IMG/VR virus record: IMGVR_UViG_3300021961_000134
Location: 1-54,241 of that record
Length of the DNA stretch: 54,241 bases
Source of the DNA: a virus
Lineage: Duplodnaviria; Caudoviricetes
Reading direction: 5' to 3' (one strand)
Below are positions 10,073 through 28,848 of this stretch, one piece after another. The translations under genes were made by a program, and so were the position numbers. Position 1 is the stretch's first letter; each line of letters starts with the position of its first letter. Below the pieces are notes generated by a model. The model was not told where the DNA came from and searched no databases. It was given only the letters and a program-made list of their open reading frames with translations.

Positions 10073-10206
10073 ATCGTGAGGAAGGCCAGATCCTTCGATC
10101 TCCTTCCTCCCACGATTTACTCTATAGTCGAGGGAACGGTTGGCCTGATCTGCTTCAGTGCCAACGTCTTCAAGCATTACTTTAAATCCGTGATCTTCAG
10201 GATTTA
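10073..10206 (-). other. Three consecutive RNA stem-loops downstream of the giant gene stop codon
   Basis: Inverted repeats at 10183-10206 (TAAATCC/GGATTTA), 10136-10167 (TTGGC..CTGA/TCAG..GCCAA) and 10073-10116 (ATCGT, GAGGAAGG and AGATC arms). The region is locally GC-rich. Confidence 0.7.
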
Positions 10207-10209
10207 TCT

Positions 10210-13200
10210 CTAAGCTACTCTCACCCATAATGTATAACTATCCTCTTCACCAGCACCATAACTACCTGCATACGTATTTATATATGCCTTTTGATAAGTT
10301 GCATCATATCCTCTATTGAAAACACCTACGTAAGTGTTTTCAAAGTATCCTGTAAACACACCACTGTATGTCGTAGTATATGTTTTAGTGTACGTATATT
10401 CACCTTCGTATGTCTTAGTCCATATCTTGGTAAAGTCACCTGAATCTAATGTATATGTTTTAATATAATCTGTTACGAAATTTGTGCTGTATACTTTATT
10501 ATATTCTTTAACATAATTAGTATCTAATTGATATGAATTTTGATATACTGTTGTCCAGTTCTTAGCGTAAGTAGCTTCATATGATTTTTCATAATCCGTA
10601 TCACCAACATATACTTTATCCCAGTTGCCTATGTAAACTTTTTCCCACGTCTTATCATATGATTTATCAAAATTTACACCGCCTGCATAATCTTTACTAT
10701 AAGTCTTTACAAAGTCATGGTCAACGAGAGTTGTGTATGTTTTAGTGTAATCGAATTCTTTATTGTATACTTTCTCCCATGTCTTCTCGTAATCTTTGTT
10801 CCATACTTTGTCGTATGCAGCCTCGAAGTTTACAGGAGACGAATATGTACCAGTCCAATCTTGCTGATATAACTTTTGCCAATCTTTTAAGAAAGCCCCT
10901 GTATAGGTTTTTGAGAAAGGCTGATCAGATGAATAACCTCCATCGTAAGATTTTTCATAATCTTTATTCCATACCTTAGAATATGTTTTTACAAAATCTA
11001 CGTCGCTTACATATTCACCAATATAAGTTTTTTCCCATGCCTTTTCGTATTCCTTAGTATATGTTTTATCAAATGAGTGAACTGATGTGTAAGTTGCGAT
11101 ATAATCAAAAGCAAAGTTGGCTGAATACGAAGCTTCATATCCAGTAGAATAATCCATATAACCTTCATATGTTGCTTCATAATCTTTAGACCAAGTACCT
11201 TCATATGTACCTTGCCATAATTTTGAGTAATCTACATCACTAACATATTCACCAAGATATAATTTATTGTATTGACCGACATACAATTTATTCCAACCAC
11301 GCTCAAAGTTTACATCGCCAACGTATTGACCAGAATAATCAGTACTATAGGTCGCAACGTATTCTTTATTATATGCTCCAATGTACCCTACTTCACCAGA
11401 CCATGCTTTGTCATAAGCTGCTATATACTCAGCTTGATAATCCTTTGCATAACTTCCAGTATAGTCACCTGAGTAATCTTTTTGGAAGTTGGATTCATAA
11501 GAAGCCACGTATGTTTTTGTCCAATCACCAACATATAACCCAGCAAAATCTCCTTCATAATTTCCAGAGAATGATCCGGAATAATTTCCTACGTACGTAC
11601 CTTCATAGTCTTTTGAGAATCCGCCTGAATATTCACCCTCAAAGTTTTGAGAATATACACCCATCCAAGCTCTATCATATGTCTTTACATAATCTGTTTC
11701 ATAACTTTTTATGTAATCTCCAACATATGTTCCTTCGAATAACGATGAGTATGTACCTTGGTAAGTAGTTGTCCAGTTCTTTGCAAAGTCACCTTCATAT
11801 GTGCCAGCATATAATTTAGAAAATTCTCCTGTGTATACTCCAGCAAAATCATGTGACCATAATTTGTTGTATGTATGCTGATATTCTTTAGCATATTCTT
11901 TTTGGAAATGTCCAACATACGTACCTTCAAAATCTTTAGACCAAATTGTGGTGTAAGCAGCACCATATTCTTTAGTAAATGATTTTTCATATGTCTTTAA
12001 ATATTCTTTTATATACTCTCCAGTATAATCACCGTCATATGATCCTGTATAATCTACAGAATATGTTTTTTCATATCCGCGATCGTAAGCGTGGAGATAT
12101 TCTCCTTGATAAGTTCCTTCAAACAGTGATGAAAACTGACTGCTATATGTTCCTTCATATTCTTTTACATAAGTTCCATCATATTGTTTAACATAATCTT
12201 TGTTAAACTGACCAGAATATGACTTTTGATATAGACCCAAGAAATTGGATGAATATGTTTTGTTCCAATCACCTATATAATCTTTGTTGTAGTCACCTTC
12301 ATAGGTTCCTTCAAACAAAGAGGCAAAAGAAGATTCATAGTTGCCAAGGTATGTTTTAGTATAAGTACCACTCCATTCATGAACATATACTTTGTTCCAA
12401 TCCTTAGAATATGCTTTTACATAGTCACCTTCATACGTACCTTCAAACAATGACGAGAATGTTTGATCGTAGGACCCTTCATATTCTTTAATGTATATTC
12501 CAGACCAATCTTGCGAATAAGTTTTTACCCAGTTCTTAGTATACGCTTTTACATAATCGCCTTCATAAGTACCTTCCCACATCTTTTGATAGAGAGCAAG
12601 ATATGTACCTTCATATGTTTTAGTATATGCACCTTGATAGGTTTTTTCATATGTTTTTTCGAACCCACCAATGTATGTCTTTTCATATTCACCAGACCAG
12701 TCTTGAGAATAGGTTTTTGTCCATTCTTTTTGATACAGACCTGCATACTCTTTAGTGTAGTCACCATCATATGTTTTAGTATAGATACCAGAATATGTTC
12801 CTTGATACTCTTTAATGTATGCTTCAACATAATCTTTAACGTATGTACCAGAATATTCTTTTACATATACGCCCTCATACTCATTTGCATATAGAGCAGT
12901 ATATGTTTTTTCATATGTCTTGTCGTAATCTTTAGCAAAGTCTGAACTGTATACACCTTCATATGCGCCTTGATACAAAGTTGTGTAAGTCTTTTCGTAG
13001 TTCTTGTCCCAGCTTCTTTCAAAGTTTTTATTAAATATACCAGTATAGTTTCCTGAGTAATCACCTACGTAAGTTTTTACATAATCTTTAGCCCACAGGC
13101 GAGTCCACAATCTATCATACGAACCTTCATAGGTACCTTCATATGTTGTATCATAATTCTTTAAATAGTTCTTATTCCAGTTGTGAGTGTACACACCTGT

Positions 13201-16200
13201 GTACGTACCTTCATATGCACCTTCCCAGTTCTTTGTGTAAGTTCCGACATAATCTTTTACCCAAGTATTATTAAATACACCAGTATATTGACCCGTGTAG
13301 TTACCAGCCCATGCTTTATTATAGAGAGTAGTATATGTCTTTTCCCACGTATTGGCAAAGTAACCAGTGTATACACCTGAGTAAACGCCAGTATAAGCGC
13401 CTTGATACAACTTAGCATACAGCTTTTCCCAGTTATGTGTATATACGCCAGTATAGTTACCTGAATAATCTCCAGCATATTCGTTCGCATAATTTTTAAT
13501 ATAGTTAGCTGTATAGTTACCGGTAAAGTATCCAGTATATGTTCCATCATAATAACCAGTATACACACCAGTATAATCACCAGAATATGCAGCTTGATAT
13601 GTCTTAACGTAATCCTTGTTCCAGATTCTTACCCAGTTCTTTGTATAATTGCCTGTATAGTAACCTGTATATACACCGGTGTAATCGCCAGCCCAGTTCT
13701 TAATATAGTTACCAGTGTAGAAATTTTGATAGTACCTTCCAAAGTAACCTGTGTATGTTCCATCATAATAACCAGTATACACACCAGTATAAGCACCAGC
13801 CCAAACCTTAGCATAGGTCTTTACATAGTTTGCTGCAAAGTAGCCTGTGTATGTACCAGTGTATACACCGGTGTAAGCACCAGCCCAAGCCTTCGCATAT
13901 GTTTTGTCGTAATTGTTACCAAAGTAACCTGTGTATGTACCAGTGTATACACCAGCCCAAGCCCTAGACCAAACCCTTACATAATCCTTGTTGTACGTGT
14001 TATTATATGTTCCAGTATAGTAACCAGTATATGCTCCAGAGAAGTTTCTTGCATAGTTGGCCCCGTAGTAGTTAGGATAGTATCTACCAAAATATCCTGT
14101 ATAGGTTCCCGTATAGTATCCAGTATAGGCACCGCTGTAAACACCAGCCCACGCTCTTACCCAAGCTCTTACATAGTTCTTACTATAGTTTCCTGTAAAA
14201 GTTTTAGCCCAAGCCCTTGAATAAATTTTAGCATAACTATTTGCAAAGGTCGTATTTCCACTAAAGAATCCTGTAAAATAACTAGTCCCTTGATAATAAT
14301 TTGGATTAAGGTATCCAGCATAGTAAATGTTACCGTAGTACATTGTTCTACCATAGTTACCAGAATAACTTCTTCGGTAATTTGGAGAGAGGAATCCACC
14401 GTAGTAAATATTACCGTAGTATAATGGACCTAGCCATGTCTTTGCCCAGTTTTTAGTATAGTTAGCAGTAAAGTATCCAGTGTATACACCTGTCCACACT
14501 CTGACATAATCTTTGTTGTATGTTCGGTTATAATATCCTGTATAAAATCCAGTATAATATCCAGTATAAGCTCCAGAATAGTTACCAGCCCAGTTCTTTA
14601 AATAATCCTTTTGCCATACCTTAGCAAAGTTGCCTGTATAGGTTCCAGTGTAGTATCCTGTGTAAACGCCTGTCCAAGCCTTTACATATCCCTTAACATA
14701 ATTCTTACTATAGTTACCGGTATAGTATCCAGTATATGCACCTGTATATGCACCAGCCCAAGCCTTAGCATAGGTCTTTACATAGTTAGCAGCATAATAC
14801 CCAGTATAGGTACCAGTGTATACACCGGTGTAAGCACCTTCCCATGCCTTAGCATATGTTTTGTTATAATTGTTACCATAGTATCCGGTATATACACCTT
14901 CATAGTTACCTACATACGTACCGGTATATGCACCAGCCCAGTTCTTTAAATAATCTTTTGTCCAAGTTTTTGCATAGGTGTTGGCAAAGTATCCTGTGTA
15001 AACACCGGTATAGTTACCCGCATATACGCCAGTGTATACATTATCATAAGAAGCATCGTACGATTTAACATAGTTTTTTGACCAGTTGTGTAAGAAAGTA
15101 CCAGTATACACACCAGTATAGTTACCTACATACGTACCGGTATATGCTCCTTCCCAAGCCTTTGACCAAACTCTGTTCCATATTCTAGCCCAAGAGTTTG
15201 CAAAATATCCTGTAAACGTACCTGTGTAAACACCAGTATAGGCACCTTGCCACAATCGCGACCAGTCTCTTCCCCAGTTTTTGGTATACACCCCAGTGTA
15301 GGTACCTTCATATGCTCCAGCATATGTTGTATCGTAATTCTTATTCCAGTCTTTAGAATAATCAGCTGAAAAGTATCCAGTAAACACACCAACGTAGTCA
15401 CCAGAATACGTTTTGTCGTAATTCTTTAGCCAATTTTTGGAATAGTTGTCAACATAATAACCTGTAAAAACTCCTGTATAATCACCGCTATAATCACCAA
15501 CATAAGTCTTTACGTAATCTTTGACCCATGTGTGAGCAAAGTATCCAGTATAGATACCTGAATATTCATTTGCATAAACTGCTTCATAATGCTTTTCGTA
15601 ATTTTTATCCCAGTTTTTCTGATAGACACCGGTGTATGTACCTGCGAAGTTACCTTCGTAGTTTGTTAGATAAGACTTGACATAGTCTTTGTTCCAAACC
15701 TTTTCCCAGTTTTGATTATAAACACCAACAAAATCACCAGTATAGTGTTTGGTATATGTCTTAACATAATCTTTATTCCAGTCCCTTGACCATTCCCCTT
15801 GATAAAGACCAGCGTATTCTTTGTTGTATGTACCAGTATAAGACTTTACATATGCATGCTCGTATGCAGCTTTATAAGTTGTAGTGTAGGTTCCCTCATA
15901 GGCGCCTTCGTATTCTTTATTGTATTGGCCAACATATAATCTGTTATAGATACCTTCGTAATGTGCTTCGTAAGCCTTATTATAATCGCCCGTGTAAGTA
16001 CCTTCGTAGTGTTTACTAAAGTCACCAGAATAATCCTTTACATAATCTTTGTTGTATTCACCGAGGTACGTTGTATCAAACGTACCTGTCCAAGCTCCAA
16101 TATAGTCCCCTTCATAAGTTCCGGACCACAGCTGAGAATAGGTTTTATTGTATATTGTTACATAATCTTTATTGTAATCGCCAATATACGTACCTTCATA

Positions 16201-19107
16201 ATCGCCTTGGTAGATACCAGCAAAAGCTCCAGTAAAGTCGCCTTCATAATTGCCCGCCCAAAGATGAGAATATGTTTTGTTGTATTCTGTGGTATATGTT
16301 TTAGTATAATCGCCTGCATATCTTCCAATGTAAGCCTTATCATATGACCCAATAAACAGACCTACGAAATCTCCCTCATAGTTACCTGCCCACAATGTTG
16401 AGTAAGTTTTTTCATAAGTTTTGGAATACGTCTTTACGAAATCACCTTCGTATGACCCTTCATAATCTTTTGCAAAATCACTGCTATATGTTGCTTCATA
16501 TGCTCTTAAATATGTACCAGTATAATCACCTACATATATTCCAGAGAAGTCACCAGTGAAGTCTCCTTCGTAGGTTCCAGCCCAAAGATGGGAATACGTT
16601 TTAATATAATCCTTAGAATATGTCTTATTGTAATCGCCTTCATATGTTCCTTCATAAGACTTGGAATATGAACCTTCATAGTGACCAAGATAAGTTTTTA
16701 TAAAACCGCCAATGTAATCCGTGTTGTAAGAAGTTCCATAACTTGCAGAAAAATGTCCTGTATAATTACCAGAAAAATCCCCACCATACAATTTATTGTA
16801 GTTATGCGAATAATCTTTTTGATATGCTGCTGCAAATTGACCGGTATATAATCCTATAAAATCTCCAGACCACGTACCTTCATATGTACCTTCAAAATCT
16901 TTTGCATATATTGTTGTCCAGGTTTTAACATATTCACCAGTGAAATCGCCTTCGTAATTTCCAGCCCAATCTGTAGAATAGGTCTTGTCATAATTTTTTG
17001 TATAGGTTTTTAAATATTCACCTGTGTAAAAACCAGAGAATTGACCAGTGTATTCACCTAAGAACTGGCCACTGTATTCCCTATTGTATATACCTAGCCA
17101 ATCTCGTGAAAATGTTTGACTATAGACACCTTCGAAATTCTGACTGTATATGCCCTCATAATTAGTTGAATAAACTTTGTTCCAATCTTTAGCAAACGCC
17201 CCAGCATATTGTACCTCTACTATTCTATTATATGTTTTATCATATGTTTTTTCGTAGTCTTTATTCCAGGATTTCTCATATGTTCCAACAAAATCTACTG
17301 GAGAAGAATAAACACCTAAGTATGTTTTAACATAATCTTTATTCCAGTCACCAACATACGTGCCTTCAAAAGCAACTGGACCAGCATACAATGTTGAATA
17401 TGTTTTAACATAGTCACCATCATAAGTTTTTTCATAATCGCCCTGGAATGTTACTGCTGATGTATATGTTGCTTCGTAATCACCAGCGTATAACGTATTG
17501 TATTCTTTAGCATAAAGTTGTGAATATTCTAATGGACCATGATAAGCTTCACCCCAATCCTTTGAAAATGAGCCTTCGTAAGTTGCTTCATATGCTTTAT
17601 CAAAAGAATGAACTGATGTGTATGTTTTAACATAATCATATTGATATTGAGTATTGTAATCTGTCTTGTATTCTCCTGCAAAGGTAACAGCAGAAGTATA
17701 TGTTTTTTCATAATCAGTATTATATGTAGCTTCCCAATTTCTTAAATAAGTTCCAACAAACTCTACTTGTCCGAGATATGTTTTAGTGAAGTTCTTTTCG
17801 TATGATGCACCATAATCTTTAACATAATCTCCAGTATATGATCCATCGTAGCCTACTTCACCTGCCCATTGTTTGTTGTATAAAGTAGTATAAGTTTTTT
17901 GATATAGGGTACTGTAATCTGCAGCATATCCTGTTGTTCCAACATAAATCGTACTCCATTCTTTGGCATACGATCCTGTGTATGTTGTTAAATAAATTTG
18001 TTCAAAGTTCACATCGCCCTGGTAGGTTTTAATATAATCAGCTGACCAAAGTTTAGCGTAATCCCCACCATAATGTTTTATATAATCTGTTTCTAAATTA
18101 TATGCTTTAATATAATCTTTATTGTAATCAGCACTATAGGTTTTTGTCCAATCGCCAGTATAGTATTGATCTAACACATATGTCTTTAAATAATCTTTAG
18201 AAAAATTACCTTCGTATGATTGATCATATGCTTTCAAGTAGTGCTGGTCAGTTCTAGAATATACAGTTTCATAATCAGTAGAATAAGATTCTAATGCAAG
18301 ATAGCTTTTACTCCAAATTCTATCGTATGTACCTGTGTATTGACCAATCCAGTTGGTAGTATAAGAGCCTTCGTATTCTTTAGTAAAAGATAAAGCATAA
18401 TCGTCTACATAATCTTTAGCCCATGTTTTACTATAAGTTGTAGCTCCAATATCTCTAACTGTACCTCTCGCTTCCCATGTACCAACGACAGGAGCAGATG
18501 CACCAATGAAATATTGACCTACACCGGTATCCACAATCCTCTGTCTAAGTCTTTCAGTAAAGAACGATTGTATTTGGGTATTAGTAAATTGTTTAAGCGT
18601 ATTGTCGTCTGATATTAATAGAGGATAAATTGCTGTTGCTGACGAAGAGTTGGATGTTCTTCTTCTTAAATAATAAGTAGTACCACCAGACTCGTTTATA
18701 GTATTGATAGTTGTATATAATGTGTTTGAACTATCACTGGTTAAAATATATGATCCTATACCATTAGACACCATGTTAGATATCATTGTGTCTACTAGGC
18801 TATTAAGAGTAGATGTATTAGCTTCTTCGATAGTAGTGTTAAAAACTACATAACCAGATACATCAGAAGTATTAGCAGTAGAAGATAAGTTCTGAGTTAG
18901 CGACGAATTAGTGCCACCAACATCTACTAGTATACCAGCATTTGATCCTAAATCTGTAGAAAAACTAATTGCACCAGCTAATGTATTATTAGATGCAAAA
19001 CTAGTTAAAGTTTGCTCAATAATATGATTCAATTCTATGGATGGCATTTCTTGCAATGCAATCCAACTTCCACCACCCGTTGTTTTAATTTTTAGTGGAT
19101 TGGCCAT
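10210..19107 (-). CDS. Giant Tyr-periodic repeat protein (2965 aa), putative fold-back virion fibre
   Basis: About 225 aa of non-repetitive N-terminus, then ~2730 aa with Y/F/W at every fourth position, and a short C-terminal SYTLWVRVA. An AAGGA RBS is upstream; it lies in the tail/fibre region. Confidence 0.85.
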   Translation of the reverse strand: MANPLKIKTTGGGSWIALQEMPSIELNHIIEQTLTSFASNNTLAGAISFSTDLGSNAGILVDVGGTNSSLTQNLSSTANTSDVSGYVVFNTTIEEANTSTLNSLVDTMISNMVSNGIGSYILTSDSSNTLYTTINTINESGGTTYYLRRRTSNSSSATAIYPLLISDDNTLKQFTNTQIQSFFTERLRQRIVDTGVGQYFIGASAPVVGTWEARGTVRDIGATTYSKTWAKDYVDDYALSFTKEYEGSYTTNWIGQYTGTYDRIWSKSYLALESYSTDYETVYSRTDQHYLKAYDQSYEGNFSKDYLKTYVLDQYYTGDWTKTYSADYNKDYIKAYNLETDYIKHYGGDYAKLWSADYIKTYQGDVNFEQIYLTTYTGSYAKEWSTIYVGTTGYAADYSTLYQKTYTTLYNKQWAGEVGYDGSYTGDYVKDYGASYEKNFTKTYLGQVEFVGTYLRNWEATYNTDYEKTYTSAVTFAGEYKTDYNTQYQYDYVKTYTSVHSFDKAYEATYEGSFSKDWGEAYHGPLEYSQLYAKEYNTLYAGDYEATYTSAVTFQGDYEKTYDGDYVKTYSTLYAGPVAFEGTYVGDWNKDYVKTYLGVYSSPVDFVGTYEKSWNKDYEKTYDKTYNRIVEVQYAGAFAKDWNKVYSTNYEGIYSQNFEGVYSQTFSRDWLGIYNREYSGQFLGEYTGQFSGFYTGEYLKTYTKNYDKTYSTDWAGNYEGDFTGEYVKTWTTIYAKDFEGTYEGTWSGDFIGLYTGQFAAAYQKDYSHNYNKLYGGDFSGNYTGHFSASYGTSYNTDYIGGFIKTYLGHYEGSYSKSYEGTYEGDYNKTYSKDYIKTYSHLWAGTYEGDFTGDFSGIYVGDYTGTYLRAYEATYSSDFAKDYEGSYEGDFVKTYSKTYEKTYSTLWAGNYEGDFVGLFIGSYDKAYIGRYAGDYTKTYTTEYNKTYSHLWAGNYEGDFTGAFAGIYQGDYEGTYIGDYNKDYVTIYNKTYSQLWSGTYEGDYIGAWTGTFDTTYLGEYNKDYVKDYSGDFSKHYEGTYTGDYNKAYEAHYEGIYNRLYVGQYNKEYEGAYEGTYTTTYKAAYEHAYVKSYTGTYNKEYAGLYQGEWSRDWNKDYVKTYTKHYTGDFVGVYNQNWEKVWNKDYVKSYLTNYEGNFAGTYTGVYQKNWDKNYEKHYEAVYANEYSGIYTGYFAHTWVKDYVKTYVGDYSGDYTGVFTGYYVDNYSKNWLKNYDKTYSGDYVGVFTGYFSADYSKDWNKNYDTTYAGAYEGTYTGVYTKNWGRDWSRLWQGAYTGVYTGTFTGYFANSWARIWNRVWSKAWEGAYTGTYVGNYTGVYTGTFLHNWSKNYVKSYDASYDNVYTGVYAGNYTGVYTGYFANTYAKTWTKDYLKNWAGAYTGTYVGNYEGVYTGYYGNNYNKTYAKAWEGAYTGVYTGTYTGYYAANYVKTYAKAWAGAYTGAYTGYYTGNYSKNYVKGYVKAWTGVYTGYYTGTYTGNFAKVWQKDYLKNWAGNYSGAYTGYYTGFYTGYYNRTYNKDYVRVWTGVYTGYFTANYTKNWAKTWLGPLYYGNIYYGGFLSPNYRRSYSGNYGRTMYYGNIYYAGYLNPNYYQGTSYFTGFFSGNTTFANSYAKIYSRAWAKTFTGNYSKNYVRAWVRAWAGVYSGAYTGYYTGTYTGYFGRYYPNYYGANYARNFSGAYTGYYTGTYNNTYNKDYVRVWSRAWAGVYTGTYTGYFGNNYDKTYAKAWAGAYTGVYTGTYTGYFAANYVKTYAKVWAGAYTGVYTGYYDGTYTGYFGRYYQNFYTGNYIKNWAGDYTGVYTGYYTGNYTKNWVRIWNKDYVKTYQAAYSGDYTGVYTGYYDGTYTGYFTGNYTANYIKNYANEYAGDYSGNYTGVYTHNWEKLYAKLYQGAYTGVYSGVYTGYFANTWEKTYTTLYNKAWAGNYTGQYTGVFNNTWVKDYVGTYTKNWEGAYEGTYTGVYTHNWNKNYLKNYDTTYEGTYEGSYDRLWTRLWAKDYVKTYVGDYSGNYTGIFNKNFERSWDKNYEKTYTTLYQGAYEGVYSSDFAKDYDKTYEKTYTALYANEYEGVYVKEYSGTYVKDYVEAYIKEYQGTYSGIYTKTYDGDYTKEYAGLYQKEWTKTYSQDWSGEYEKTYIGGFEKTYEKTYQGAYTKTYEGTYLALYQKMWEGTYEGDYVKAYTKNWVKTYSQDWSGIYIKEYEGSYDQTFSSLFEGTYEGDYVKAYSKDWNKVYVHEWSGTYTKTYLGNYESSFASLFEGTYEGDYNKDYIGDWNKTYSSNFLGLYQKSYSGQFNKDYVKQYDGTYVKEYEGTYSSQFSSLFEGTYQGEYLHAYDRGYEKTYSVDYTGSYDGDYTGEYIKEYLKTYEKSFTKEYGAAYTTIWSKDFEGTYVGHFQKEYAKEYQHTYNKLWSHDFAGVYTGEFSKLYAGTYEGDFAKNWTTTYQGTYSSLFEGTYVGDYIKSYETDYVKTYDRAWMGVYSQNFEGEYSGGFSKDYEGTYVGNYSGSFSGNYEGDFAGLYVGDWTKTYVASYESNFQKDYSGDYTGSYAKDYQAEYIAAYDKAWSGEVGYIGAYNKEYVATYSTDYSGQYVGDVNFERGWNKLYVGQYNKLYLGEYVSDVDYSKLWQGTYEGTWSKDYEATYEGYMDYSTGYEASYSANFAFDYIATYTSVHSFDKTYTKEYEKAWEKTYIGEYVSDVDFVKTYSKVWNKDYEKSYDGGYSSDQPFSKTYTGAFLKDWQKLYQQDWTGTYSSPVNFEAAYDKVWNKDYEKTWEKVYNKEFDYTKTYTTLVDHDFVKTYSKDYAGGVNFDKSYDKTWEKVYIGNWDKVYVGDTDYEKSYEATYAKNWTTVYQNSYQLDTNYVKEYNKVYSTNFVTDYIKTYTLDSGDFTKIWTKTYEGEYTYTKTYTTTYSGVFTGYFENTYVGVFNRGYDATYQKAYINTYAGSYGAGEEDSYTLWVRVA

Positions 19108-19116: not shown

Positions 19117-22100
19117 TTACTGGTATTTGTATGTGGTATCGCCCAAGATGTTACCTTCATATATGAAGCTAACATTATTTATGTCGAACCCAACCACGGC
19201 TGCTCCAGGAAGTCCCCCATCACCGCAGTTATGGAATCTAGATTTTCTTCTAAATTCTTCGCCACCACCCATACCAACTTGGCCTAGGTTACCACCAACA
19301 CCACCAGGTAATCTCGTATTACCATAATCATAATTTGGCTGTCCTCTTAAACCGCCATTGATTAAAGTTCCGTTACGAGGCTCTACTTTAAGCTGAGCAC
19401 TTTCATATTTTGAACTTTTAGGTGAAATACCAACAGTCCACCCAGCACCACCTGACCCTGGTACACCTACTATGTCTGAAGTACCAAAGAATGATCTATT
19501 AATTTCTTGAAGATAGTTTGCACCTTCATATGTTCTTGCATATGATCCTACATATGCTTTAGAGTATGTCGCACCATAAATCTTTACATAACTTTTAGCA
19601 TAATCAGCAACAAACTCATTCGCATAAGAACCTGCATAAATGTGGGTCCATGCTTTAGTATATGTTGCAGAATAATTTGCATTTCCTAAGTAACTTGTTG
19701 AGAGATGGAAGACGCCAGTATATGGAGTTAAACCAGAATACAAAGTTTCATTAAGGTATGCACCACCATAGTAAATATTACCATAATAAGCAATTGCAGA
19801 ATAACTTCCTGTATACGTTCTAGTCCAATTACCACCAAATGCACCACCACCAAAGTATACTGGACCTAGATAACTAATACTACCCGACCATGTCTTATTG
19901 TACACTGCTGTATAACTTTTGCTATAATACCCTACAAACACATTAGCATACGACGCTTGCCAATTTTTACCATATGTTTTTGACCAATTTTTAGCATAGT
20001 CTTTACCATAAGTTTGATCAAAGTAAAGCGCGCTAGTTGCAGTATAGTAAGCTGTCCATGCATATGCATTTTCATATGTTACACTATACACAGCCTCGAC
20101 TGCATGATAAGATTCTGGAGTTGTTGAATATGTTGTTCCATAATCATCAGTCCAACCTAATGCACTAGTATATCCTACATATGTGGTTTGATATCCAGCA
20201 GCCCAAATTTTGTTATAATCAACATCTAATGCTGTTGAATATTCGCCAGTATAATTTGTAGATATATTATAATTAACTTCACTTCCGTAATTACCACCAT
20301 AAGGAGCAAATGTATCTGCAGATTCATAACCGTTATATAATAAAGAAGCTGCTCTTGAATATCCTTGAAGACCTTCGTACCCAACGATTCTTACTCTATT
20401 GTAATTTACTGAGTATGATTTATTATATCCTTTGAGATATTCTTTTGTATATGTTCCACTATATTCAGCAGTGAATGTAACATTATAAGATTTTGTATAG
20501 TTACCAACGTATTCAGCTATATACTCTCTTGCATATGTATCCTGATAATCTCCAGTAAAGGTTCTAGAATAAGAACCGGAATAATTTTTTGTATATTCCT
20601 TGTTGTAGGTTTTTGAGAAACTACCTTGATAGGATCCAACAAACGCTTTTGTATACTCCTTAGTAAAATCTCCAACATATGCAGCTGTATAATCTACGGA
20701 ATATTCAGCAACAAAATCCCCTGCATATGCGTTGTATGTTCTATCATAAGATTTACTGTAGGTTTTTTCAAATGTTTGTTGATATGTTGCTTCGTAAGAA
20801 CCTAGATATGTACCTTCAAAGGCTTGTGTATATAATTTATTATATTGTTTTACATATGTAGCATCGTAACTACCAATATAAGCCCCTACAAAATTGCTTT
20901 GATAATACCCTCCACCATATGCACTTGGTTCACTACTATAAGATTTCTGATAATGCCCTACATATGTAACATTATAAGAAACATTATATTCTTTGGTATA
21001 CAGACCTTCGAAGCTAGCAGAACTACCTACAGTAAGATAAGTTTTATTAAACTCACCTGAGTAAGCTCCAGCATATGCTCTTTCAAATGATCTCTCATAC
21101 TCTGTACCCATGTAATAAACTGTTCCACCATATACTGTTACGCCAGAATAAACTCCAGTAAATGATGTAGTATTGTAATCATTAGTATAACCCTTTGAGT
21201 AATTTGTACTAAAGGTTTTTATAAATTCATCGCTCACTCCAGCATAAATTGTACTTGAAACATATGTGTTGTATGATCCGCCATAATTTGCTGTATAACC
21301 TGGTACTGACGTATATGCGGTTACTGTTCCAACATAATTTCCACCGGACCAAGATCCAGTAAACGCTTGAGCTGGAGTATAAGCTCCAATATAGGCTTTA
21401 ACATATTCAGTCTTGGTATATGTATGCTCACCTACGTATGTTTCAACTACACCTGGATATGAACCAGCAATACCATCCCTTCCTTCAGCATAAGATGCTT
21501 GTCCAACATATCCACCTACATAATTCTTTACATAATCAACACCGTAGTTTGCACCACCACCACTATAACCTAGATACGATTGATAGTATAATAATCCGGA
21601 ATATTGTTTTGAATAAGGAACAATGAACTGGCCCCCAACAGCTTCAAAGCTAATAGCATATGTTCCAGTATATGTTTTGCTGTATGTTCCTGAATACGCT
21701 TTAGTATATCCTTTTTCATACGAGCCAGCATATGTTCCTATAAAACTGCGACTGTATCCACCAGTATAAGAACCTACATAAGTTTTTAAGTATGATCCTA
21801 GATACGTACCTAAAAATTCTCTGTTGTAGTATATCGTTCCTGTATAATGTTTTACGAAGTTACCAGTAAATATACCAGTATAGGTCTTTACATAATTTTG
21901 ATATCCCCCACCATAATAAACTTCTGTACCATAACTTAAAGCAAATGTTGTTGTGTTTAAGAACCCAGCTCCAGATGCATAATTACCAGTAAAATAAAGA
22001 GTTCTCGAATAATAATTAGGATTAAGATATCCTGAGTAGAAAACATTACCATAGTAAGCTACTGTTCCATAACCGGGGCCTACAAAGTTTCTTAGTGAGT

Positions 22101-25100
22101 TGTATCCGTTGAAATATTCAGGTGCTGATTGGTGATATGTAGTAATAGTGTTTCCGTAATATATTAAGCCAGTGTAGTTCGTTGCACTATAACTTGGACC
22201 GGAAGCGTATGATCTTGGACCTTGATACGTATTAGTATAAGTGCCTTCAAAATGTCCTACATAGGTTTTAGCATATTGAATTTGGCTTATATAACCACCA
22301 TAATAAAGTATACCAGCAAAGTTTCCTGTATAGGATCCAACATAAGATTTTAAATAATGTTTTACATAGTTACCATCATATACACCAGTATATGAACCAG
22401 CATAAGCACCAGTAAAGTTTCTTTCAAAATTATCAACATAGGTTTTATTAAACACGCCAGTATATGACTTTGCGAACCCAGCCCCAGAATAATAATTAGT
22501 AAATACATTTGTAGGAACGTATTCTGTAGCATCAGCTCCGCCCTGCCATACTCTACCAAGATACGTTGCTTGATAAACACCAGCTTGATCTGAATATGGA
22601 TCAGTAATACCAGAGGCACCACCACCTCCACCGCCACCACCTATTGTCCCATAGTTTTCTATGAATAGATGAACATCTGAACTTGAAGTTTTGATAGCAT
22701 CGCCACCGTTTGTACCAGAATATGACAAACCTCTTGGACCACCAATGTCGCCACCGTTACCACCTTTACCTACAATGTAACCACATGGATATGTGACAAC
22801 TCTTACAAGATGTTTTAGGTCTGCAGTTGTTGATCCAGACACGTTAGCTGTTACTGCCTGCATAGTGCTTAAATCAAGTGAGGAAGAAGTACTTCCATCT
22901 GATCCTAAAATAAATGTCTTGCTATGTTCTAATTGTTCACCTATAAAAATGTTAACCATCTGAAGGTTTTTATCTGGATCTTTACCTATTGAAAATAAAT
23001 AATCTCTGAGGTTAAAGTTGTTTATGTAGTATACAATCTTTCCGTCAATATAATCACTACCTCTTGAAGAACCTGCATTTTCAGAAATTAGTCGACCATT
23101 ACTATTAAATATGATGTCTGTATGATCATATCCAACATATGCGATTTTCCAATCGCCACCTTCTTTAACATTAATATATCTAACTTGTTTCCACGAATCC
23201 TCTTGTTGTACAAACATATTCTTTACAGATTGCCAACTACTGTCGTTCATAACAAACAACTTAGGATCAGAATTTTGAGTGTTTAATTGACCTGAAGAAG
23301 GACCTACGAAGCTAGTTGTTCCTCTGTAAACTTCTTGTCTTGTTAAATTACCGGTATAGTTTTTAACAAATTCAGTTTGACCTGTGTATGAAGGTTGGAA
23401 CGAACCCTGGAATTCAGACAAATATGTTTTAGTGTAATATAACAAGCCTTCATAGTTAGTAGATCCAGTATAATCCCCTACATATGCTGCGACAGGGGAA
23501 TATGAACCTAGCCAGTTTTTAAGGTAATCACTAGAATAAGCACCAATATAATTTTTATTGTATGATTTGTCGTAGTTCGTAGATGTAACTTTTGTATATG
23601 TACCAGTGTAGGCCTTTTGCCATATTTTAGTATATACACCTTCCCATGAATGCACATATGAAGCCGAATATGTACCTTCATATGTTTTAACGTATGAAGT
23701 GCCATCCCCTCTATATGCTTTAGCATATAACTTTTCAAAGGAACCCGTATATGATCTAGAATATATTTTGTTGTAAGCAACAAAGTTTTCTATTCTTTGT
23801 GTTGTATAATTTCTAGACCAAACTTTAGTATAAGCCTTGTCGTATGATTTACTATAAACTTTTTGATAGTATGCATAGCTTTCAGATATATATGATCTTG
23901 CATATAATTTGATATATTCACCTGCGTATTCTTTACGGTACCCACCTGTAAAATTACCGAGGTAAGTTCCATATGCAGGGCCCTCTAAATAATGTTTATT
24001 ATAATTTGTAGACCCAACATATGCTTTGACATATTCTTTATTAAAATCAGCTGAAGGTCTGTATGTCTTTTGCCAGTTCTTAGTATAATTAACTAAAGGT
24101 GAGAAGTATACATTAAATGTCTTTGTAAAGTTTGCTTGACCAGCAAAATAACCTGTAAATGTTTGTGCAAATCCACCATAAGTTTTTAGGAATCCATTGT
24201 ATTCCTTAATGTATCCACCAAAGTATGCATCGCCAGAATAAGCTTTTTCATAGCCTTTTATAAAGTTAGCTGAAGCGTTATAGTAACCGGTATAATAAAG
24301 AACCCCCTGATAATAATTTGGATTAAGGTATCCAGCATAGTAAATGTTACCATAGTAAGCTGCTGTTGCATACAGTTTGGCAAAATTTCTTAGGTATCCA
24401 GCAAAATATGCAGTACCAGAATATTCTTTGTTATATGCTCTAGAAAAATATCCAGTTCCAACAAATGAATGAGAATAATTTTTTAGGTACCCACCAAAAT
24501 ATGCAACACCCGTATAAGTTACAGAGTATTCTTTTGTGTATGATTTAAGGTAACCACTGTAGTATGGTAAACCTGAATAAGTTTTATTATAATCTTTAGC
24601 GTAGGTTTTAATATATCCAGCATAAAAAGCATCGCCCCTGTAAGATACATTATAAGTTTTATTATATTCAGCGAGTCGTACACCACCAAAATACGCATCC
24701 CCAAGATAAGCCCTAGACCAATATATTAGAGTGTAATTGGCTCCTGAATATCCACTAAAGAATAGAGGACCTATAAAGTCCTGATTGTAAACACCAGAGT
24801 AATATTTATTAAATACTCCAGTCCATATTCTACTGTATTCCTTAGTGTAACTTAATGTTCTAGAATAACCACCAAAGAAAAGAGGACCAGCATAATCTTT
24901 AGTATATGAGCCTACCCAAATCTTATTATATGTTGTAGACCAGTTTTTAGCATACTCTTTAGTATAGACGTTCTGATTAGACCACCCACCAAAGTATATG
25001 ACAGGACCGTGGAAAGATCTTGCATAATCAGGACCTGAAAAAGTACCAGACCATAGTCTTAAATATTCTTTGGAATAGTATCCTGATTCACTCGTGTACC

Positions 25101-28100
25101 CACTGTAGTACGTTAAGCCTCTATAAGCTCTATCAAACGTACCACTCCAAACTTTATTATATGCTTGATCAAATGTTCCTGTATACACTGCGTCATAATT
25201 TTTAGTAAATGTACCAGAATAATTTGTCGTTATGTCACCAACATATGTTGCTACATAGGTCTTTATATACGATCCTAAAAACGTTCTTGAATAAGCTGCC
25301 TGCCAGGATGACGTATATACAGAACCCCATTCTGATGTATAATATCTAATACCTGTCCAGTTTTTAGAATAATATGCAACTCCAGAATAGTTACCACCAA
25401 GTGCACCATAGTTTTTAATAAATTTAGCAAAAATGCCACTATAATTTTTGCTATATGTTTTTGTATAATCACCTACATATGTCTTTTCATAGTTCTTAAC
25501 ATAGTCTTTATTGTATTCACCAAGGTAATTTTTAGTATAAGTTTTTTCATATGAACCTTGGTATACTGCAGTGTATGCTTTTACATAATCAGCACCATAT
25601 TCTTTTACGTAATTCTTACTATATGCACCTTGATATGTTTTTGTATACGTCTTATTGTATACATTAGAATATACACCATCCCATGTTCTACTATATTGTT
25701 TTGTATATTCTTTATTGTACGCTCCTTCATATGATTTACTATATCCTGCAACAAATGTTTGAACATAATCCCCTTGATATGTGTGTGAATATATCCCTTG
25801 GAAAACTTGTTGATAAGTTTTTTCATATTCTCCTACCCATACTTTAGCGTAGGCTTTGTTGAATTCATTACCATAATCACCAGCATATATTGTAGTGTAT
25901 ACTGCACCGTATTCGCCAATATAAGTTTTATTATAATCTTTGACCCAAGCTGACTCGTATGTCTTTACCCAGTCTTTACTATAATATCCTGTTTGAGCTG
26001 CATATGCTTTAACATAAGTTGTAGTATAAGTTTTGTCGTAATTTTTAGTCCAGTTTCTATCATAATTTGCAGTATAAAATCCAGTAAAGGCACCTGAATA
26101 TGTCCCTGTAAACACACTACCAAACGAACCTTCCCAAACCCTATCATAATTTTTAGTCCAGTTTCTGGAATATGTTAAAGACTGAATATATCCTTGGTTG
26201 AAGTATCCTGTATAAACACCTGACCAAATTCTTTGATAATTCTTAGACCAAACCTTTGTATAAGATAGAGACTGAATATATCCTCGGTTGAAGTATCCTG
26301 TGAAAACTCCAGTGTAAGCACCTTGCCATATCTTGTTGTAATCTTTGTTGTAGGCAGTAGTACCAGCAAAGAAACCTTGGAAAGCTAAAGCAAACCCAGA
26401 AAAATATGCATTACCAGAATACGCTTTAGAATAATCTTTTAAAAATGATCCAGTGCCTGTGAAGAATCCAGTAAAATATTGTACTGATTGATAATAATTG
26501 GGATTAAGGTACCCCGAATAATAGATATTACCATAATAAGCTGTTCCAGCAAACGTCCTAGCATATGATCTGGAATACCCAGCATAGTATGCTATACCTG
26601 AATATTCTTTAGTATATTCGCCAGAAAAGTATCCGGTTCCAACATACCAACCAGAAAAATTTCGTTGATAGTTAGGAGATAGAAACCCACCGTAGTAAAT
26701 ATTACCATAATATAAAGGGCCTATATATGTTTTTGTATATGTTTTATTCCAATCATGTATGAACACACCAGTATATGTACCAGCATATGACTTTACCCAT
26801 GTTCTGATATATCCATTATAATTTGCATTACCTAGATATGATGTAGTCCAATCCCTAGAATAATCATTTGTGTATCCACCGGTGTAGTTTCCTGCCCAAG
26901 CTCTAACCCAAGTTCTAAGATATCCATTATAATTTGCATTACCAACATACGCTGCTTCATAATTAATATTATATGTTTTATTAAAAGAACCTACAAAAGA
27001 GTTTCCCCAATCGTGGGTAAAAGCACCAGTATATGTTCCTGACCACACCTTTGAATATGTAGCAGTATAAGTTGTACTGTATGTTTTGTTCCAGTCTTTT
27101 GTATACGTGTTTAAGTAGTCTGTTTCTGGTAACCCAACATATGTTCCAGAGTAGGCCTTTAAAAAGGTTCCATTATATGTTGTTAAATATGACTTAGTAT
27201 AATCACCAGCCCATACACGATCATAAGATTTGGTATACAATCCCTGGAATATTTGTGCATATGTTTTAGTATACACCGCATCATAACTTCCAGCATATAC
27301 TTTGTTGAAATCTCCAACATATTCACCGCTATAGTCTTTACTGTAAAATGCAATGTAGGTATGATCATAGTTTTTACTATACGTCTTTACGTATATACCA
27401 GCATAGTTAGTGGTGTATGTTTTGTTGTATTCTTTTTCATACGAACCGACCCAATCTTTATTGTAGGTCTTTTCATAGTTTTTACTGTATTCCCCAAGAT
27501 AAGTTTTGACATAATCTTTAGCCCACAACTTAGAATATGCAGTGTTGTAATCTTTAGAATATTCACCTAGATAATTTTTATGATATACTGATTCATATGA
27601 ACCTGTATATGTTGCAACATAATTTTTAAGATAAGTTTTACCATATTCCCCTTGATATAACTTTAAATAATTTTTAACATATGTGCCTTCATATATTAAA
27701 GCACCAAAAGAAGTTAGTCCGCTGTAATCACCTGTGTATTGAGTTGCACCACCCTCAAAGTTAATTATTGCAACATAACCTGCGGTACCAGCATAATCAG
27801 CAGTATATTGTGGGGCGCCATAATCTTGCAGACCTGAGTATGCTTCTGATATTTGATAATTAGCAGTATAGGTAACAACGCTAGTATAGTTCTTAGCATA
27901 TTCTTTATTGAATGCTAGCTCAGATACCCAAGCTGCTTGTCCTTCATAGGTTTTACTATAACCTACGTAACCACTATATTCTCCTAAAAACCCTTCTGAT
28001 ATTGTTACTATTCCAGAATATGAACCAATACCTACATATGCTCTAGAAAACTGGGTATACCCAGTATAATACTCACCAGAATAGCTTTGGTAGCTTATTG

Positions 28101-28848
28101 CCCCCCCATATGCTTTATTATACTGAACAGGTCCTCCAACATAATTTAAAAACGTATTATATACTGAAGTATAGGTACCTGTATATGTTGCTGGCGCATT
28201 ATATTCCTTTGAATACGCTCTTTGAAATTCACTTTCGTAATATCGTGTACCAAGATATGCTTTGTTATAGTAAACAATTCGATCAGCAGTACCAGTATAA
28301 TTTTTTGCATAGTCAACAAAACCGTTGAAACCTTCACCATAAGTTCTTATATATGTTTGAGCGCCTTCATACGTACCAGTGTATATTCCACCTCTATAAT
28401 ACGCAGGACCTATGTATGTTACTGGACGCGAGTAGTTAGTGACGTTCCCATATGTGCCTTGGTAAATAGCAAATTGGTTGGCATCTGCCCAAATACTATC
28501 AGGTTGATTTGCTGCTGAAGCATATTCTTTAGAATATTGAATAGTACCTGCATACACTGCTGCTGCTTCATAGGTTGCAGTATAGGTATCAACGTCTATG
28601 GAATTGTAGTTTTGGGTCGTTACATATGTTGCTGTGTAACCTACTGGACCGGATGCAAAGTTACCATGCCAGGAAAGGGTTGATGTTCTACGTACAGTAT
28701 AAACGCCTTGATACCCATTATAGAATCCGCTATAAGCATTTGTATATGACATAAGAGCATTATGAGTAGACTCTCTTAGATAAGAGACTTGTCTATCTCT
28801 ACTCTCTCCTGCGTATTCCGATGCGTAAATTCTAGAGGCGTAACTCAT
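19117..28848 (-). CDS. Giant Tyr-periodic repeat protein (3243 aa) containing a split gp38-like adhesin domain
   Basis: YxxxY periodicity, plus non-repeat segments YIVGKGGNGG...GTNGGDAI...IENYGTIGGGGGGGG (~22610-23280) and GGVGGNLGQVG...GGLPGAAVVG...EGNILG (C-terminus) that match T2/T6/S16-type gp38 glycine-rich motifs. Confidence 0.85.
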   Translation of the reverse strand: MSYASRIYASEYAGESRDRQVSYLRESTHNALMSYTNAYSGFYNGYQGVYTVRRTSTLSWHGNFASGPVGYTATYVTTQNYNSIDVDTYTATYEAAAVYAGTIQYSKEYASAANQPDSIWADANQFAIYQGTYGNVTNYSRPVTYIGPAYYRGGIYTGTYEGAQTYIRTYGEGFNGFVDYAKNYTGTADRIVYYNKAYLGTRYYESEFQRAYSKEYNAPATYTGTYTSVYNTFLNYVGGPVQYNKAYGGAISYQSYSGEYYTGYTQFSRAYVGIGSYSGIVTISEGFLGEYSGYVGYSKTYEGQAAWVSELAFNKEYAKNYTSVVTYTANYQISEAYSGLQDYGAPQYTADYAGTAGYVAIINFEGGATQYTGDYSGLTSFGALIYEGTYVKNYLKLYQGEYGKTYLKNYVATYTGSYESVYHKNYLGEYSKDYNTAYSKLWAKDYVKTYLGEYSKNYEKTYNKDWVGSYEKEYNKTYTTNYAGIYVKTYSKNYDHTYIAFYSKDYSGEYVGDFNKVYAGSYDAVYTKTYAQIFQGLYTKSYDRVWAGDYTKSYLTTYNGTFLKAYSGTYVGLPETDYLNTYTKDWNKTYSTTYTATYSKVWSGTYTGAFTHDWGNSFVGSFNKTYNINYEAAYVGNANYNGYLRTWVRAWAGNYTGGYTNDYSRDWTTSYLGNANYNGYIRTWVKSYAGTYTGVFIHDWNKTYTKTYIGPLYYGNIYYGGFLSPNYQRNFSGWYVGTGYFSGEYTKEYSGIAYYAGYSRSYARTFAGTAYYGNIYYSGYLNPNYYQSVQYFTGFFTGTGSFLKDYSKAYSGNAYFSGFALAFQGFFAGTTAYNKDYNKIWQGAYTGVFTGYFNRGYIQSLSYTKVWSKNYQRIWSGVYTGYFNQGYIQSLTYSRNWTKNYDRVWEGSFGSVFTGTYSGAFTGFYTANYDRNWTKNYDKTYTTTYVKAYAAQTGYYSKDWVKTYESAWVKDYNKTYIGEYGAVYTTIYAGDYGNEFNKAYAKVWVGEYEKTYQQVFQGIYSHTYQGDYVQTFVAGYSKSYEGAYNKEYTKQYSRTWDGVYSNVYNKTYTKTYQGAYSKNYVKEYGADYVKAYTAVYQGSYEKTYTKNYLGEYNKDYVKNYEKTYVGDYTKTYSKNYSGIFAKFIKNYGALGGNYSGVAYYSKNWTGIRYYTSEWGSVYTSSWQAAYSRTFLGSYIKTYVATYVGDITTNYSGTFTKNYDAVYTGTFDQAYNKVWSGTFDRAYRGLTYYSGYTSESGYYSKEYLRLWSGTFSGPDYARSFHGPVIYFGGWSNQNVYTKEYAKNWSTTYNKIWVGSYTKDYAGPLFFGGYSRTLSYTKEYSRIWTGVFNKYYSGVYNQDFIGPLFFSGYSGANYTLIYWSRAYLGDAYFGGVRLAEYNKTYNVSYRGDAFYAGYIKTYAKDYNKTYSGLPYYSGYLKSYTKEYSVTYTGVAYFGGYLKNYSHSFVGTGYFSRAYNKEYSGTAYFAGYLRNFAKLYATAAYYGNIYYAGYLNPNYYQGVLYYTGYYNASANFIKGYEKAYSGDAYFGGYIKEYNGFLKTYGGFAQTFTGYFAGQANFTKTFNVYFSPLVNYTKNWQKTYRPSADFNKEYVKAYVGSTNYNKHYLEGPAYGTYLGNFTGGYRKEYAGEYIKLYARSYISESYAYYQKVYSKSYDKAYTKVWSRNYTTQRIENFVAYNKIYSRSYTGSFEKLYAKAYRGDGTSYVKTYEGTYSASYVHSWEGVYTKIWQKAYTGTYTKVTSTNYDKSYNKNYIGAYSSDYLKNWLGSYSPVAAYVGDYTGSTNYEGLLYYTKTYLSEFQGSFQPSYTGQTEFVKNYTGNLTRQEVYRGTTSFVGPSSGQLNTQNSDPKLFVMNDSSWQSVKNMFVQQEDSWKQVRYINVKEGGDWKIAYVGYDHTDIIFNSNGRLISENAGSSRGSDYIDGKIVYYINNFNLRDYLFSIGKDPDKNLQMVNIFIGEQLEHSKTFILGSDGSTSSSLDLSTMQAVTANVSGSTTADLKHLVRVVTYPCGYIVGKGGNGGDIGGPRGLSYSGTNGGDAIKTSSSDVHLFIENYGTIGGGGGGGGASGITDPYSDQAGVYQATYLGRVWQGGADATEYVPTNVFTNYYSGAGFAKSYTGVFNKTYVDNFERNFTGAYAGSYTGVYDGNYVKHYLKSYVGSYTGNFAGILYYGGYISQIQYAKTYVGHFEGTYTNTYQGPRSYASGPSYSATNYTGLIYYGNTITTYHQSAPEYFNGYNSLRNFVGPGYGTVAYYGNVFYSGYLNPNYYSRTLYFTGNYASGAGFLNTTTFALSYGTEVYYGGGYQNYVKTYTGIFTGNFVKHYTGTIYYNREFLGTYLGSYLKTYVGSYTGGYSRSFIGTYAGSYEKGYTKAYSGTYSKTYTGTYAISFEAVGGQFIVPYSKQYSGLLYYQSYLGYSGGGANYGVDYVKNYVGGYVGQASYAEGRDGIAGSYPGVVETYVGEHTYTKTEYVKAYIGAYTPAQAFTGSWSGGNYVGTVTAYTSVPGYTANYGGSYNTYVSSTIYAGVSDEFIKTFSTNYSKGYTNDYNTTSFTGVYSGVTVYGGTVYYMGTEYERSFERAYAGAYSGEFNKTYLTVGSSASFEGLYTKEYNVSYNVTYVGHYQKSYSSEPSAYGGGYYQSNFVGAYIGSYDATYVKQYNKLYTQAFEGTYLGSYEATYQQTFEKTYSKSYDRTYNAYAGDFVAEYSVDYTAAYVGDFTKEYTKAFVGSYQGSFSKTYNKEYTKNYSGSYSRTFTGDYQDTYAREYIAEYVGNYTKSYNVTFTAEYSGTYTKEYLKGYNKSYSVNYNRVRIVGYEGLQGYSRAASLLYNGYESADTFAPYGGNYGSEVNYNISTNYTGEYSTALDVDYNKIWAAGYQTTYVGYTSALGWTDDYGTTYSTTPESYHAVEAVYSVTYENAYAWTAYYTATSALYFDQTYGKDYAKNWSKTYGKNWQASYANVFVGYYSKSYTAVYNKTWSGSISYLGPVYFGGGAFGGNWTRTYTGSYSAIAYYGNIYYGGAYLNETLYSGLTPYTGVFHLSTSYLGNANYSATYTKAWTHIYAGSYANEFVADYAKSYVKIYGATYSKAYVGSYARTYEGANYLQEINRSFFGTSDIVGVPGSGGAGWTVGISPKSSKYESAQLKVEPRNGTLINGGLRGQPNYDYGNTRLPGGVGGNLGQVGMGGGEEFRRKSRFHNCGDGGLPGAAVVGFDINNVSFIYEGNILGDTTYKYQ

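Follow-up and report, generated by a model that had tools for sequence, protein, structure and literature searches.

The window analysed here is the whole 54,241-nucleotide (nt) stretch of viral record IMGVR_UViG_3300021961_000134, a 54-kb record estimated to be 32% complete. Our interest in it lies in one very large gene on the minus strand, whose open reading frame (ORF) is real and whose 2965-amino-acid (aa) product we label P0001. On the minus strand the order of genes is a baseplate module, a DUF4815 gene, a Peptidase_S74 fibre gene, a gene for a 3243-aa lattice protein and then the gene for P0001 (Table 1). We consider it likely that P0001 forms a fibre on the virions of an uncultured, marine, T4-like myovirus and that this fibre is a single giant hairpin, whose chain would run out from the particle, turn at a tip in the middle of the sequence, and return alongside itself. 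Such a fold-back fibre is well supported by the sequence and is structurally unproven.

Table 1. Positions in the window of P0001, its observed and proposed parts, and the genes that precede it on the minus strand.
Feature	Position (nt)	Strand	Basis
P0001, putative fold-back fibre protein, 2965 aa	10210..19107	-	ORF and aromatic spacing
N-terminal base domain, aa 1-209, begins MANPLK, ends before the conserved GTW	18481..19107	-	Family alignment, profile search, AlphaFold2 (AF2) model of family member L041
Proposed outgoing base strand, aa 210-225, TWEARGTVRDIGATTY, mirrors the C-terminal tail at register 3175	18433..18480	-	Sums T210 + A2965 and Y225 + Y2950; counterpart in the AF2 model of L041 a long strand (239-266)
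N-arm proximal kink zone, aa 226-606, period 4, +2 shift per 26 aa (one 30-aa module), D/E-rich	17290..18432	-	Mirror match 87/90
N-arm inner zone, aa 607-1554, unbroken period 4, G- and K/R-blocks every 28-32 aa	14446..17289	-	
Central tip, aa 1555-1620, proposed turn and distal end	14248..14445	-	Sole large lattice break, twin motif
Tip motif copies, aa 1563-1577 and aa 1590-1604	14377-14421 and 14296-14340	-	
C-arm inner zone, aa 1621-2568, unbroken period 4, mirrors aa 607-1554	11404..14247	-	
C-arm proximal kink zone, aa 2569-2950, kinks at the mirror positions of the N-arm kinks	10258..11403	-	
C-terminal tail, aa 2951-2965, GAGEEDSYTLWVRVA, family strand motif [ET]TYTLYVR[VT]A	10213..10257	-	Conserved C-tail; AF2 model of L041
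T4-like baseplate module: wedge subunits, hub/lysozyme, tube cap	36517..48414	-	
DUF4815 (VrlC-like) structural protein, 2159 aa, start of host-recognition cluster	30025..36504	-	
Fibre protein, 222 aa, Peptidase_S74 intramolecular chaperone domain	29144..29812	-	
Lattice protein, 3243 aa, five tip motifs	19117..28848	-	

The defining feature of P0001 is its content of aromatic residues, 724 in all (519 Tyr, 109 Phe and 96 Trp), and the regularity with which they are placed, the spacing between successive aromatics being exactly four in 593 of 723 cases. The first residue of this lattice is Y225, which follows a non-repetitive N-terminal domain, and the last is Y2950, with 15 residues left before the C-terminus. 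It is broken in three ways, by a central block, by kinks and by extra aromatics, the last of which are YY or YF doublets that leave the phase of the lattice unshifted. A kink is a spacing of six residues with the consensus Y-x-[GS]-x-V-x-[FY], and it moves the lattice by two residues. The central block, of 66 residues, is rich in Gly, Pro and Asn and carries two copies of the motif YYGNIYYxGxLxPNY, as had been noted in an earlier annotation of the window made from its letters and reading frames (the original prediction). In the inner zones, which are free of kinks, Gly-blocks and Lys/Arg-blocks alternate every 28-32 aa at the position midway between aromatics, and a super-period of 26-32 aa is found in all zones of the lattice, the dominant period being four. 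The face of the chain that bears the aromatics also has Lys or Arg in roughly one third of the lattice units counted.

The original prediction held that P0001 is mirror-organised around a centre near residue 1590, with paired residues summing to about 3180. To measure this, the aromatic indicator was convolved with itself, so that each reflection is described by a register S = i + j. The best reflection, at S = 3175, puts 652 of the 724 aromatics opposite an aromatic, a correlation between mirror positions that is stronger than had been claimed; the mirror organisation was therefore upheld and its centre corrected to residue 1587.5. On either side of S = 3175 the score falls linearly, as a triangle, which is as expected from about 26 kinks leaving register one by one. 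The match consists of a single ungapped segment, residues 218-1554 with 1621-2957, which gives 1337 residues to each arm with no net insertion or deletion (indel), and within it there are 324 aromatic pairs among the 362 positions that hold any aromatic. Four independent features, namely the kinks, the phase that the lattice keeps in the inner zones, the tip borders (1554 + 1621) and the two lattice ends (225 + 2950), give one and the same reflection point of 3175, and the same sum is obtained from T210, at the start of a conserved GTW strand, and the C-terminal residue A2965.

Several controls were applied to this register. When the spacings of the C-arm were shuffled, the matches fell from the observed 324 to a mean of 123.7 (maximum 189 in 1000 shuffles), and when only the order of its kink modules was shuffled the mean was 279, with a fraction of 0.0005 of 2000 shuffles reaching 324. 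Reversal of the C-arm gave 237 matches. In the kink zone at residues 226-606, 87 of 90 aromatics were matched at S = 3175, compared with 75 at the next best register and 71 at the best direct one. Among phase-shift events, 14 matched at exactly the expected register, compared with 3.2 on average and at most 10 in control windows.

The kinks give the most detailed view of the symmetry. They had been described as concentrated in the two outermost zones of the protein, and they are in fact confined to residues 269-606 and 2569-2906, where there are 13-14 per arm, recurring at 26 aa except for a single 30-aa module per arm. Kink midpoints at 603, 577 and onward to 313 and 286.5 are answered by midpoints at 2572, 2598 and onward to 2862 and 2888.5, with a constant sum of 3175; the sole 30-aa module pairs across the arms at this sum (417/447 with 2758/2728), and an outermost spacing of seven is likewise mirrored. 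The similarity extends to the residues between the aromatics, as mirror-partner kinks share 22 identities at non-lattice positions versus 12.9 +/- 3.3 expected (p = 0.011) and 8 in direct order. The clearest pair is formed by identical TSVHSF kinks at 499 and 2676, and the TYTSVHSF copies that contain them (residues 496-502 and 2673-2679, again summing to 3175) are equidistant from the centre, as originally proposed. The central block lies on the dyad, its portion 1558-1620 being centred 1.5 aa from the exact midpoint. Composition is symmetric too, another point on which the original prediction held, in that D/E content correlates across the arms with r = 0.60 when mirrored (-0.27 direct) and G content with r = 0.53 (-0.44 direct).

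Symmetry of this kind need not mean that the arms touch. Each half could be an independent rod, either a local solenoid or a triple beta-helix formed with other chains, and the mirror order could stem from a central duplication or from the selection of matched hinges. A composition gradient from the centre to the ends is what an outward ageing of repeats gives, the 26-32-aa super-period is reminiscent of the coils of a solenoid, and the kink-by-kink mirroring is missing in most homologues. We nevertheless think that independent rods are improbable. The arms stay in step for 1337 residues each with no net indel, the 30-aa module is matched and the ends are flush, and these together call for a length constraint between the arms. 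Moreover, duplication gives direct rather than mirror order, and the direct-order controls were lower throughout (71 vs 87, 237 vs 324 and 8 vs 22). The Lys/Arg on the aromatic face is unlike the buried core of a solenoid, and P0001 appears to lack the coil repeat, corner residues and buried face expected of a beta-solenoid and had no solenoid match in Pfam. A recent duplication was also rejected as the origin of the likeness of the arms, on the basis of a GNNY...AGAYTG block reported in the original prediction to occur twice. It does so at residues ~1400-1468 and ~1719-1787 (midpoints summing to 3187), and the two 69-aa copies are identical at 56 positions, with 81% identity in protein and 77.8% in DNA. 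Different codons are used at 20 of those 56 identical residues, and these synonymous differences indicate that the likeness is maintained by selection and is not recent.

Support for a fold-back in which the termini are brought together came from the protein family to which P0001 belongs. Its members have a conserved N-domain (M..PLK to GTWxxxGT, with the pattern '..PLK...EENY...GTWxxxGT'), a conserved C-tail, ETYTLYVR[VT]A, and between them a middle whose length is free to vary, from about 45 to about 3700 aa, the proteins themselves being of 281 to 4046 aa. A search of 1.84 billion representatives yielded 545 clusters (at 50% identity) that match the N-domain profile at E <= 0.001, and in the best 150 of these 545 the domain is at or near the N-terminus, i.e., within the first ~550 residues. 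The alignment of the N-domain has 31 invariant columns, including G209, T210 and W211, and the N-domain of P0001 itself is 26-29% identical to those of family members. The C-terminus of P0001, SYTLWVRVA, fits the tail pattern [YFW]x[LIV][YFW]x[RK][TVI][ASDE] at the very end of the protein, and the N motif and tail occur together in 112 of 170 representatives, the remainder of which include fragments. In short members the N-domain looks internally duplicated, with two copies of G[IV]GxY...GTWxxxGT.

The middle of these proteins is also informative. The placing of the largest irregular block was assessed in 61 representatives, those in which the lattice is no shorter than 150 aa and the block measures from 8 aa to 40% of the lattice. 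Its centre was within +/-2% of the midpoint in 19 (3.2 expected if uniform), within +/-5% in 26 (8.0 expected) and within +/-10% in 36 (16 expected), and in 15 of the 61 it was no further than 5 aa from the exact midpoint. In member L012 a hairpin can be read by eye, as about ten YxGx units are followed by AGRNAG, about ten more units and the tail. Some large members have non-lattice, apparently globular stretches at or near their middle. That both termini are conserved, that the middle is expandable and that an irregular block is often at the midpoint all support the fold-back, and P0001 is the most regular member seen, with its unbroken period-4 lattice and exact kink-by-kink mirroring. The centres of family members are very diverse, and include tandem PTNYAG repeats (L073, locus 10001-11311), RLRIAISNRQ repeats (L080) and a Trp-rich block of ~80 aa (L050). 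Proteins P0002 and P0003 have large non-lattice stretches; PF14312 is listed for these two and PF13385 for P0005, without positions.

The 490-aa member L041 was modelled with AF2 using 31 sequences. The model has a predicted local distance difference test (pLDDT) score above 90 for residues ~10-260 and of 89-97 for the last 20 residues, and it contains two strands of ~28 residues, one from the GTW (239-266) and the other running to the C-terminus (459-488), which may pair. Foldseek searches of the PDB and BFVD with the L041 model found nothing at E <= 0.001. VIA-align gave Z scores of 7.0 (8b6v_A, root-mean-square deviation 3.7, 121 residues aligned), 6.7 (2qp2_A) and 5.7 (3tow_A), which are in the range that the tool calls common. 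In these alignments the base domain of L041 (N-domain plus C-tail) resembles, weakly and at noise level, the C-terminal beta-prism of MACPF proteins and MABP domains. Both of these are membrane-binding modules.

The family and the model bear as well on whether the pairing is made within one chain or between two. Chains could be assembled antiparallel, head-to-tail, with residue i of one facing residue 3175 - i of another about an intermolecular dyad. Any antiparallel pairing, within or between chains, predicts identical mirror statistics, and identical kink motifs about a local dyad would suit the interface of a homodimer. What the statistics leave equal is separated by other observations: the 66-aa break in the lattice, rich in Gly, Pro and Asn, falls exactly on the dyad; homologues have irregular, non-lattice blocks at or near their centres; members as short as 281 aa retain both the N-domain and the C-tail, separated by only about 45 aa; and AF2, modelling L041 as a monomer, puts the C-tail with its own N-domain at a pLDDT of about 90-97. 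These four observations led us to rate an assembly between chains lower, as an unlikely arrangement, and a head-to-tail rod would in addition need attachment domains at both of its ends.

A number of results weigh against the hairpin within one chain, or limit how far it can be extended from P0001 to its relatives. An AF2 prediction of the central region (residues 1408-1767), run without an alignment, had a mean pLDDT of 34.8 and gave no support to a lattice hairpin; the original prediction had proposed such a calculation as a check. For L041, AF2 gave the lattice (263-465) a pLDDT of less than 50, and the pairing of the two strands in that model is suggested by their equal length, their confidence and alignment ranges that run to 490. 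The Gly/Lys block pattern of the inner zones of P0001 has its best register at S = 3179 and its second best at 3207, with 3175 third and 3183 fourth of 86 registers. The inner zone thus gives independent support to the register of the outer zones, and fixes it only to within one or two lattice units. At S = 3175 Lys is opposite Lys, and the 102 same-charge pairs compared with one opposite-charge pair are not as expected of a simple salt-bridged ribbon. Rare residues (His, Pro, Met, Arg and Gln) were not paired across the arms of P0001 in excess of chance, and the only mirrored His pair, H500/H2677, is not above chance either.

The homologues add to these points. In 25 of the 61 representatives the largest irregular block is more than 10% off-centre, and of 22 members with at least four events per arm only four, P0001 among them, beat all control windows in the mirroring of events. 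Exact kink-by-kink mirroring is special to P0001 and is not a property of the family. The arms of L050 (3237 aa) are very unequal in their phase-shift events, 38 against 12, and local alignments of the arms, scored as mirror versus direct in 44 members, were of mixed sign. Close relatives of P0001 that would have allowed a paired-indel test were not found by N-domain searches of viral contigs or metagenome contigs. Three pairs of homologues (P0004/P0006, P0019/P0020 and P0002/P0003) could be compared in this respect, and their indels are in the irregular centres; that between P0004 and P0006, at the edge of the irregular centre, is 114 aa long and one-sided.

Taken with the mirror register, the family architecture suggests how the fibre could be built. 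The chain would leave the ~210-aa N-terminal base domain and extend outward for about 1340 residues, turn in the 66-residue tip with its twin motif, and return antiparallel and in register for another ~1340 residues, until its last 15 residues ran alongside the strand that had emerged from the base domain. Residue i would thereby be beside residue 3175 - i along the whole length. The fold-back with an antiparallel return, as originally predicted, is supported by the mirror register and by the family; the aromatic ladder that was part of the same prediction is suggested by periodicity and composition. The high content of Tyr, Thr, Gly and Val together with an even period suggests beta-strands, and with a period of four all the aromatics would fall on the same side of a two-stranded ribbon, in alternation with Gly or Lys/Arg. 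The local structure would most likely be a two-stranded antiparallel beta-ribbon in which the aromatics, one in every four residues, face those of the other strand in a ladder, with Gly or Lys/Arg at the position between, and further copies of the chain may bundle with it. The Lys/Arg on the aromatic face makes a fully buried core unlikely, and a ladder of exposed aromatics, or a bundle that is buried in part, would fit better. At ~3.3 Å per residue, 1337 residues would make a fibre of about 0.4 µm (0.44 µm). Both ends of the chain would be proximal to the virion and the middle of the sequence would form the distal, variable and receptor-facing end, in a fibre that probably serves for host capture or recognition.

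There is a precedent for such a topology in T4. In the part of the published account available to us, the D10 domain of gp37 is formed by residues 811-881 and 1010-1026, so that the tip lies mid-sequence, and the gp37 needle is trimeric, its seven iron ions being coordinated by His residues (PMC6957217). In the gp37 needle (D10-D11) the chain reaches the tip and doubles back, and the outgoing and returning stretches are elongated and side by side, as is proposed from the sequence for P0001, and both would be fibres of T4-type myoviruses. The proposed topology is the same; the scale, stabilising principle, extent and sequence family differ. The out-and-back part of gp37 is about 130 residues and that of P0001 about 2750, some 20 times longer, and whereas only the tip of gp37 folds back and the rest of the protein runs one way, in P0001 the whole fibre would be a hairpin. 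In place of His-bound iron, P0001 would be stabilised by its aromatic lattice. A metal-binding needle like that of gp37 was considered for P0001 and rejected, as the protein has no HxH motif; it has 26 His in its 2965 residues. Searches of Pfam and PHROGs revealed no sequence or profile similarity between P0001 and known tail-fibre families, including gp37.

At the level of the strands, the closest parallels are tryptophan zippers and self-assembly mimics based on OspA, which have cross-strand aromatic pairs on one face of a sheet and no conventional hydrophobic core. All of these are small, being peptides or engineered segments only tens of residues long. In P0001 the same pattern would run for about 330 rungs, if the contacts are as we propose, and the protein would then be a natural, very long and almost idealised test case for cross-strand aromatic ladders.

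The P0001 family is undescribed in the sources searched. It has no functional name in them, the named rows reading 'hypothetical protein', and the available parts of the literature searched contain no description of this family or of a fibre that is a hairpin over its whole length. Neither P0001 nor its N-domain matched a family in Pfam or PHROGs at the thresholds used, and the same searches gave no match for five small homologues (three of 281-338 aa and two of 430-437 aa). A search with the whole protein found no relative above 30% identity, the nearest being ~26%, and searches with the tip region of metagenome contigs, viral contigs and the protein database found no close relatives; the tip motif is common only to P0001 and its neighbour gene. 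Among 50,697 GenBank phage records the sole member is a 3347-aa protein of Phage C48C1 (Kyanoviridae), annotated as hypothetical, which is adjoined by annotated tail-fibre and fibre-chaperone genes.

The role proposed for P0001 follows from where its gene is found. In pelagimyophages and cyanomyophages the region after VrlC is described, in the portion of the report at hand, as a host-recognition cluster whose downstream genes are tail fibres, and whose fibre proteins could not be identified (PMC7029224). The P0001 gene lies in such a cluster downstream of the VrlC-like DUF4815 gene, and it is this position that points to host recognition. A DUF4815 gene was also upstream of the family gene in all five of the related records checked, which include a complete genome of 149 kb. 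It could be argued that P0001 is a fold-back hairpin with another use, e.g., a whisker of the neck or capsid, a spacer, a ruler, or a protein outside the virion, since gene position is the sole ground for assigning the function, the Pfam and PHROGs scans picked out no receptor-binding domain in P0001, and the base domain is without a clear structural relative, its best Z of 7.0 being noise level for that search. Set against this are the company of the gene, which is placed among VrlC-like, Peptidase_S74 fibre and glycosyltransferase-like genes of what PMC7029224, in the same portion, calls the host-recognition cluster, the constancy of its position in the five related records, the fibre and chaperone genes beside the C48C1 homologue, and the hypervariable middle of the family, as in receptor-binding parts. 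We therefore think a use other than as a host-recognition fibre very improbable.

If P0001 is the fibre we propose, its consequences are several. A fibre hundreds of nanometres long would be made from one four-residue unit, and with its ends at the virion and its receptor-facing part mid-gene it would invert the usual rule for fibre genes, which is that attachment is N-terminal and binding C-terminal. An architecture would also be assigned to a widespread, unnamed family, that of the 545 clusters, in the host-recognition cluster of marine T4-like phages. A bolder proposal, which we regard as possible and, on balance, as not the probable outcome, is that this single polypeptide is the longest beta-hairpin known, with ~330 cross-strand aromatic rungs and a length of ~0.4 µm, the size of a host cell. 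It would represent a new class of phage fibre whose length is set by paired growth of the arms between a fixed base (N-domain and C-tail) and a swappable tip, a 'fishing line' that widens the capture radius for the sparse and tiny cells of the ocean, and the family, from 281 to over 4000 aa, would be a natural series of one design. The length of a fibre bears directly on the rate at which a phage encounters sparse hosts, and P0001 may also offer a pattern for designing nanofibres whose length can be programmed.

The lattice is not restricted to proteins with this base domain. The 3243-aa neighbour of P0001 has the same period-4 aromatic lattice, with the tip motif YYGN[IV][YF]Y at residues 713, 771, 1498, 2265 and 3021, and a mirror segment of 183 aa (388-570 with 960-1142) flanks its first tip pair with 46 of 47 aromatics matched. 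It is probably, from these features, several shorter hairpins in one chain. The family N-domain and C-tail are absent from the neighbour, and it has no match in Pfam or PHROGs. Near its first tip the arms are unequal, with 2 x 37 aa versus 2 x 30 aa repeats, and around residues 1850-2100 there is a Gly-rich non-lattice stretch. A second group of proteins (P0010-P0018 and P0021-P0023), of ~1630-1820 aa, has a different N-terminus, MKDIES...FPDFY..., and some of them, e.g., P0012, end in ~700 aa of a Y/F period-4 lattice. The lattice may thus be a module shared between unrelated fibre scaffolds.

Elsewhere in the window, a megablast search with the baseplate region gave no match. Following the fibre gene, on the same strand (7809-10228, minus), are three ORFs of 248, 289 and 287 aa whose starts and stops overlap; the middle one has a weak match to Glycos_transf_2 (E 0.0026, below the Pfam cut-off) and the other two have no match. 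Their products could be fibre-modifying or assembly factors. On the plus strand, at 2724-4224, a radical-SAM protein (PF04055, E 8.9e-17) is encoded beside an ORF with weak likeness to Asp/Asn beta-hydroxylases, and radical-SAM cassettes are mentioned, in the part of that report available, in a comparison of the variable region of two pelagimyophage genomes (PMC7029224).

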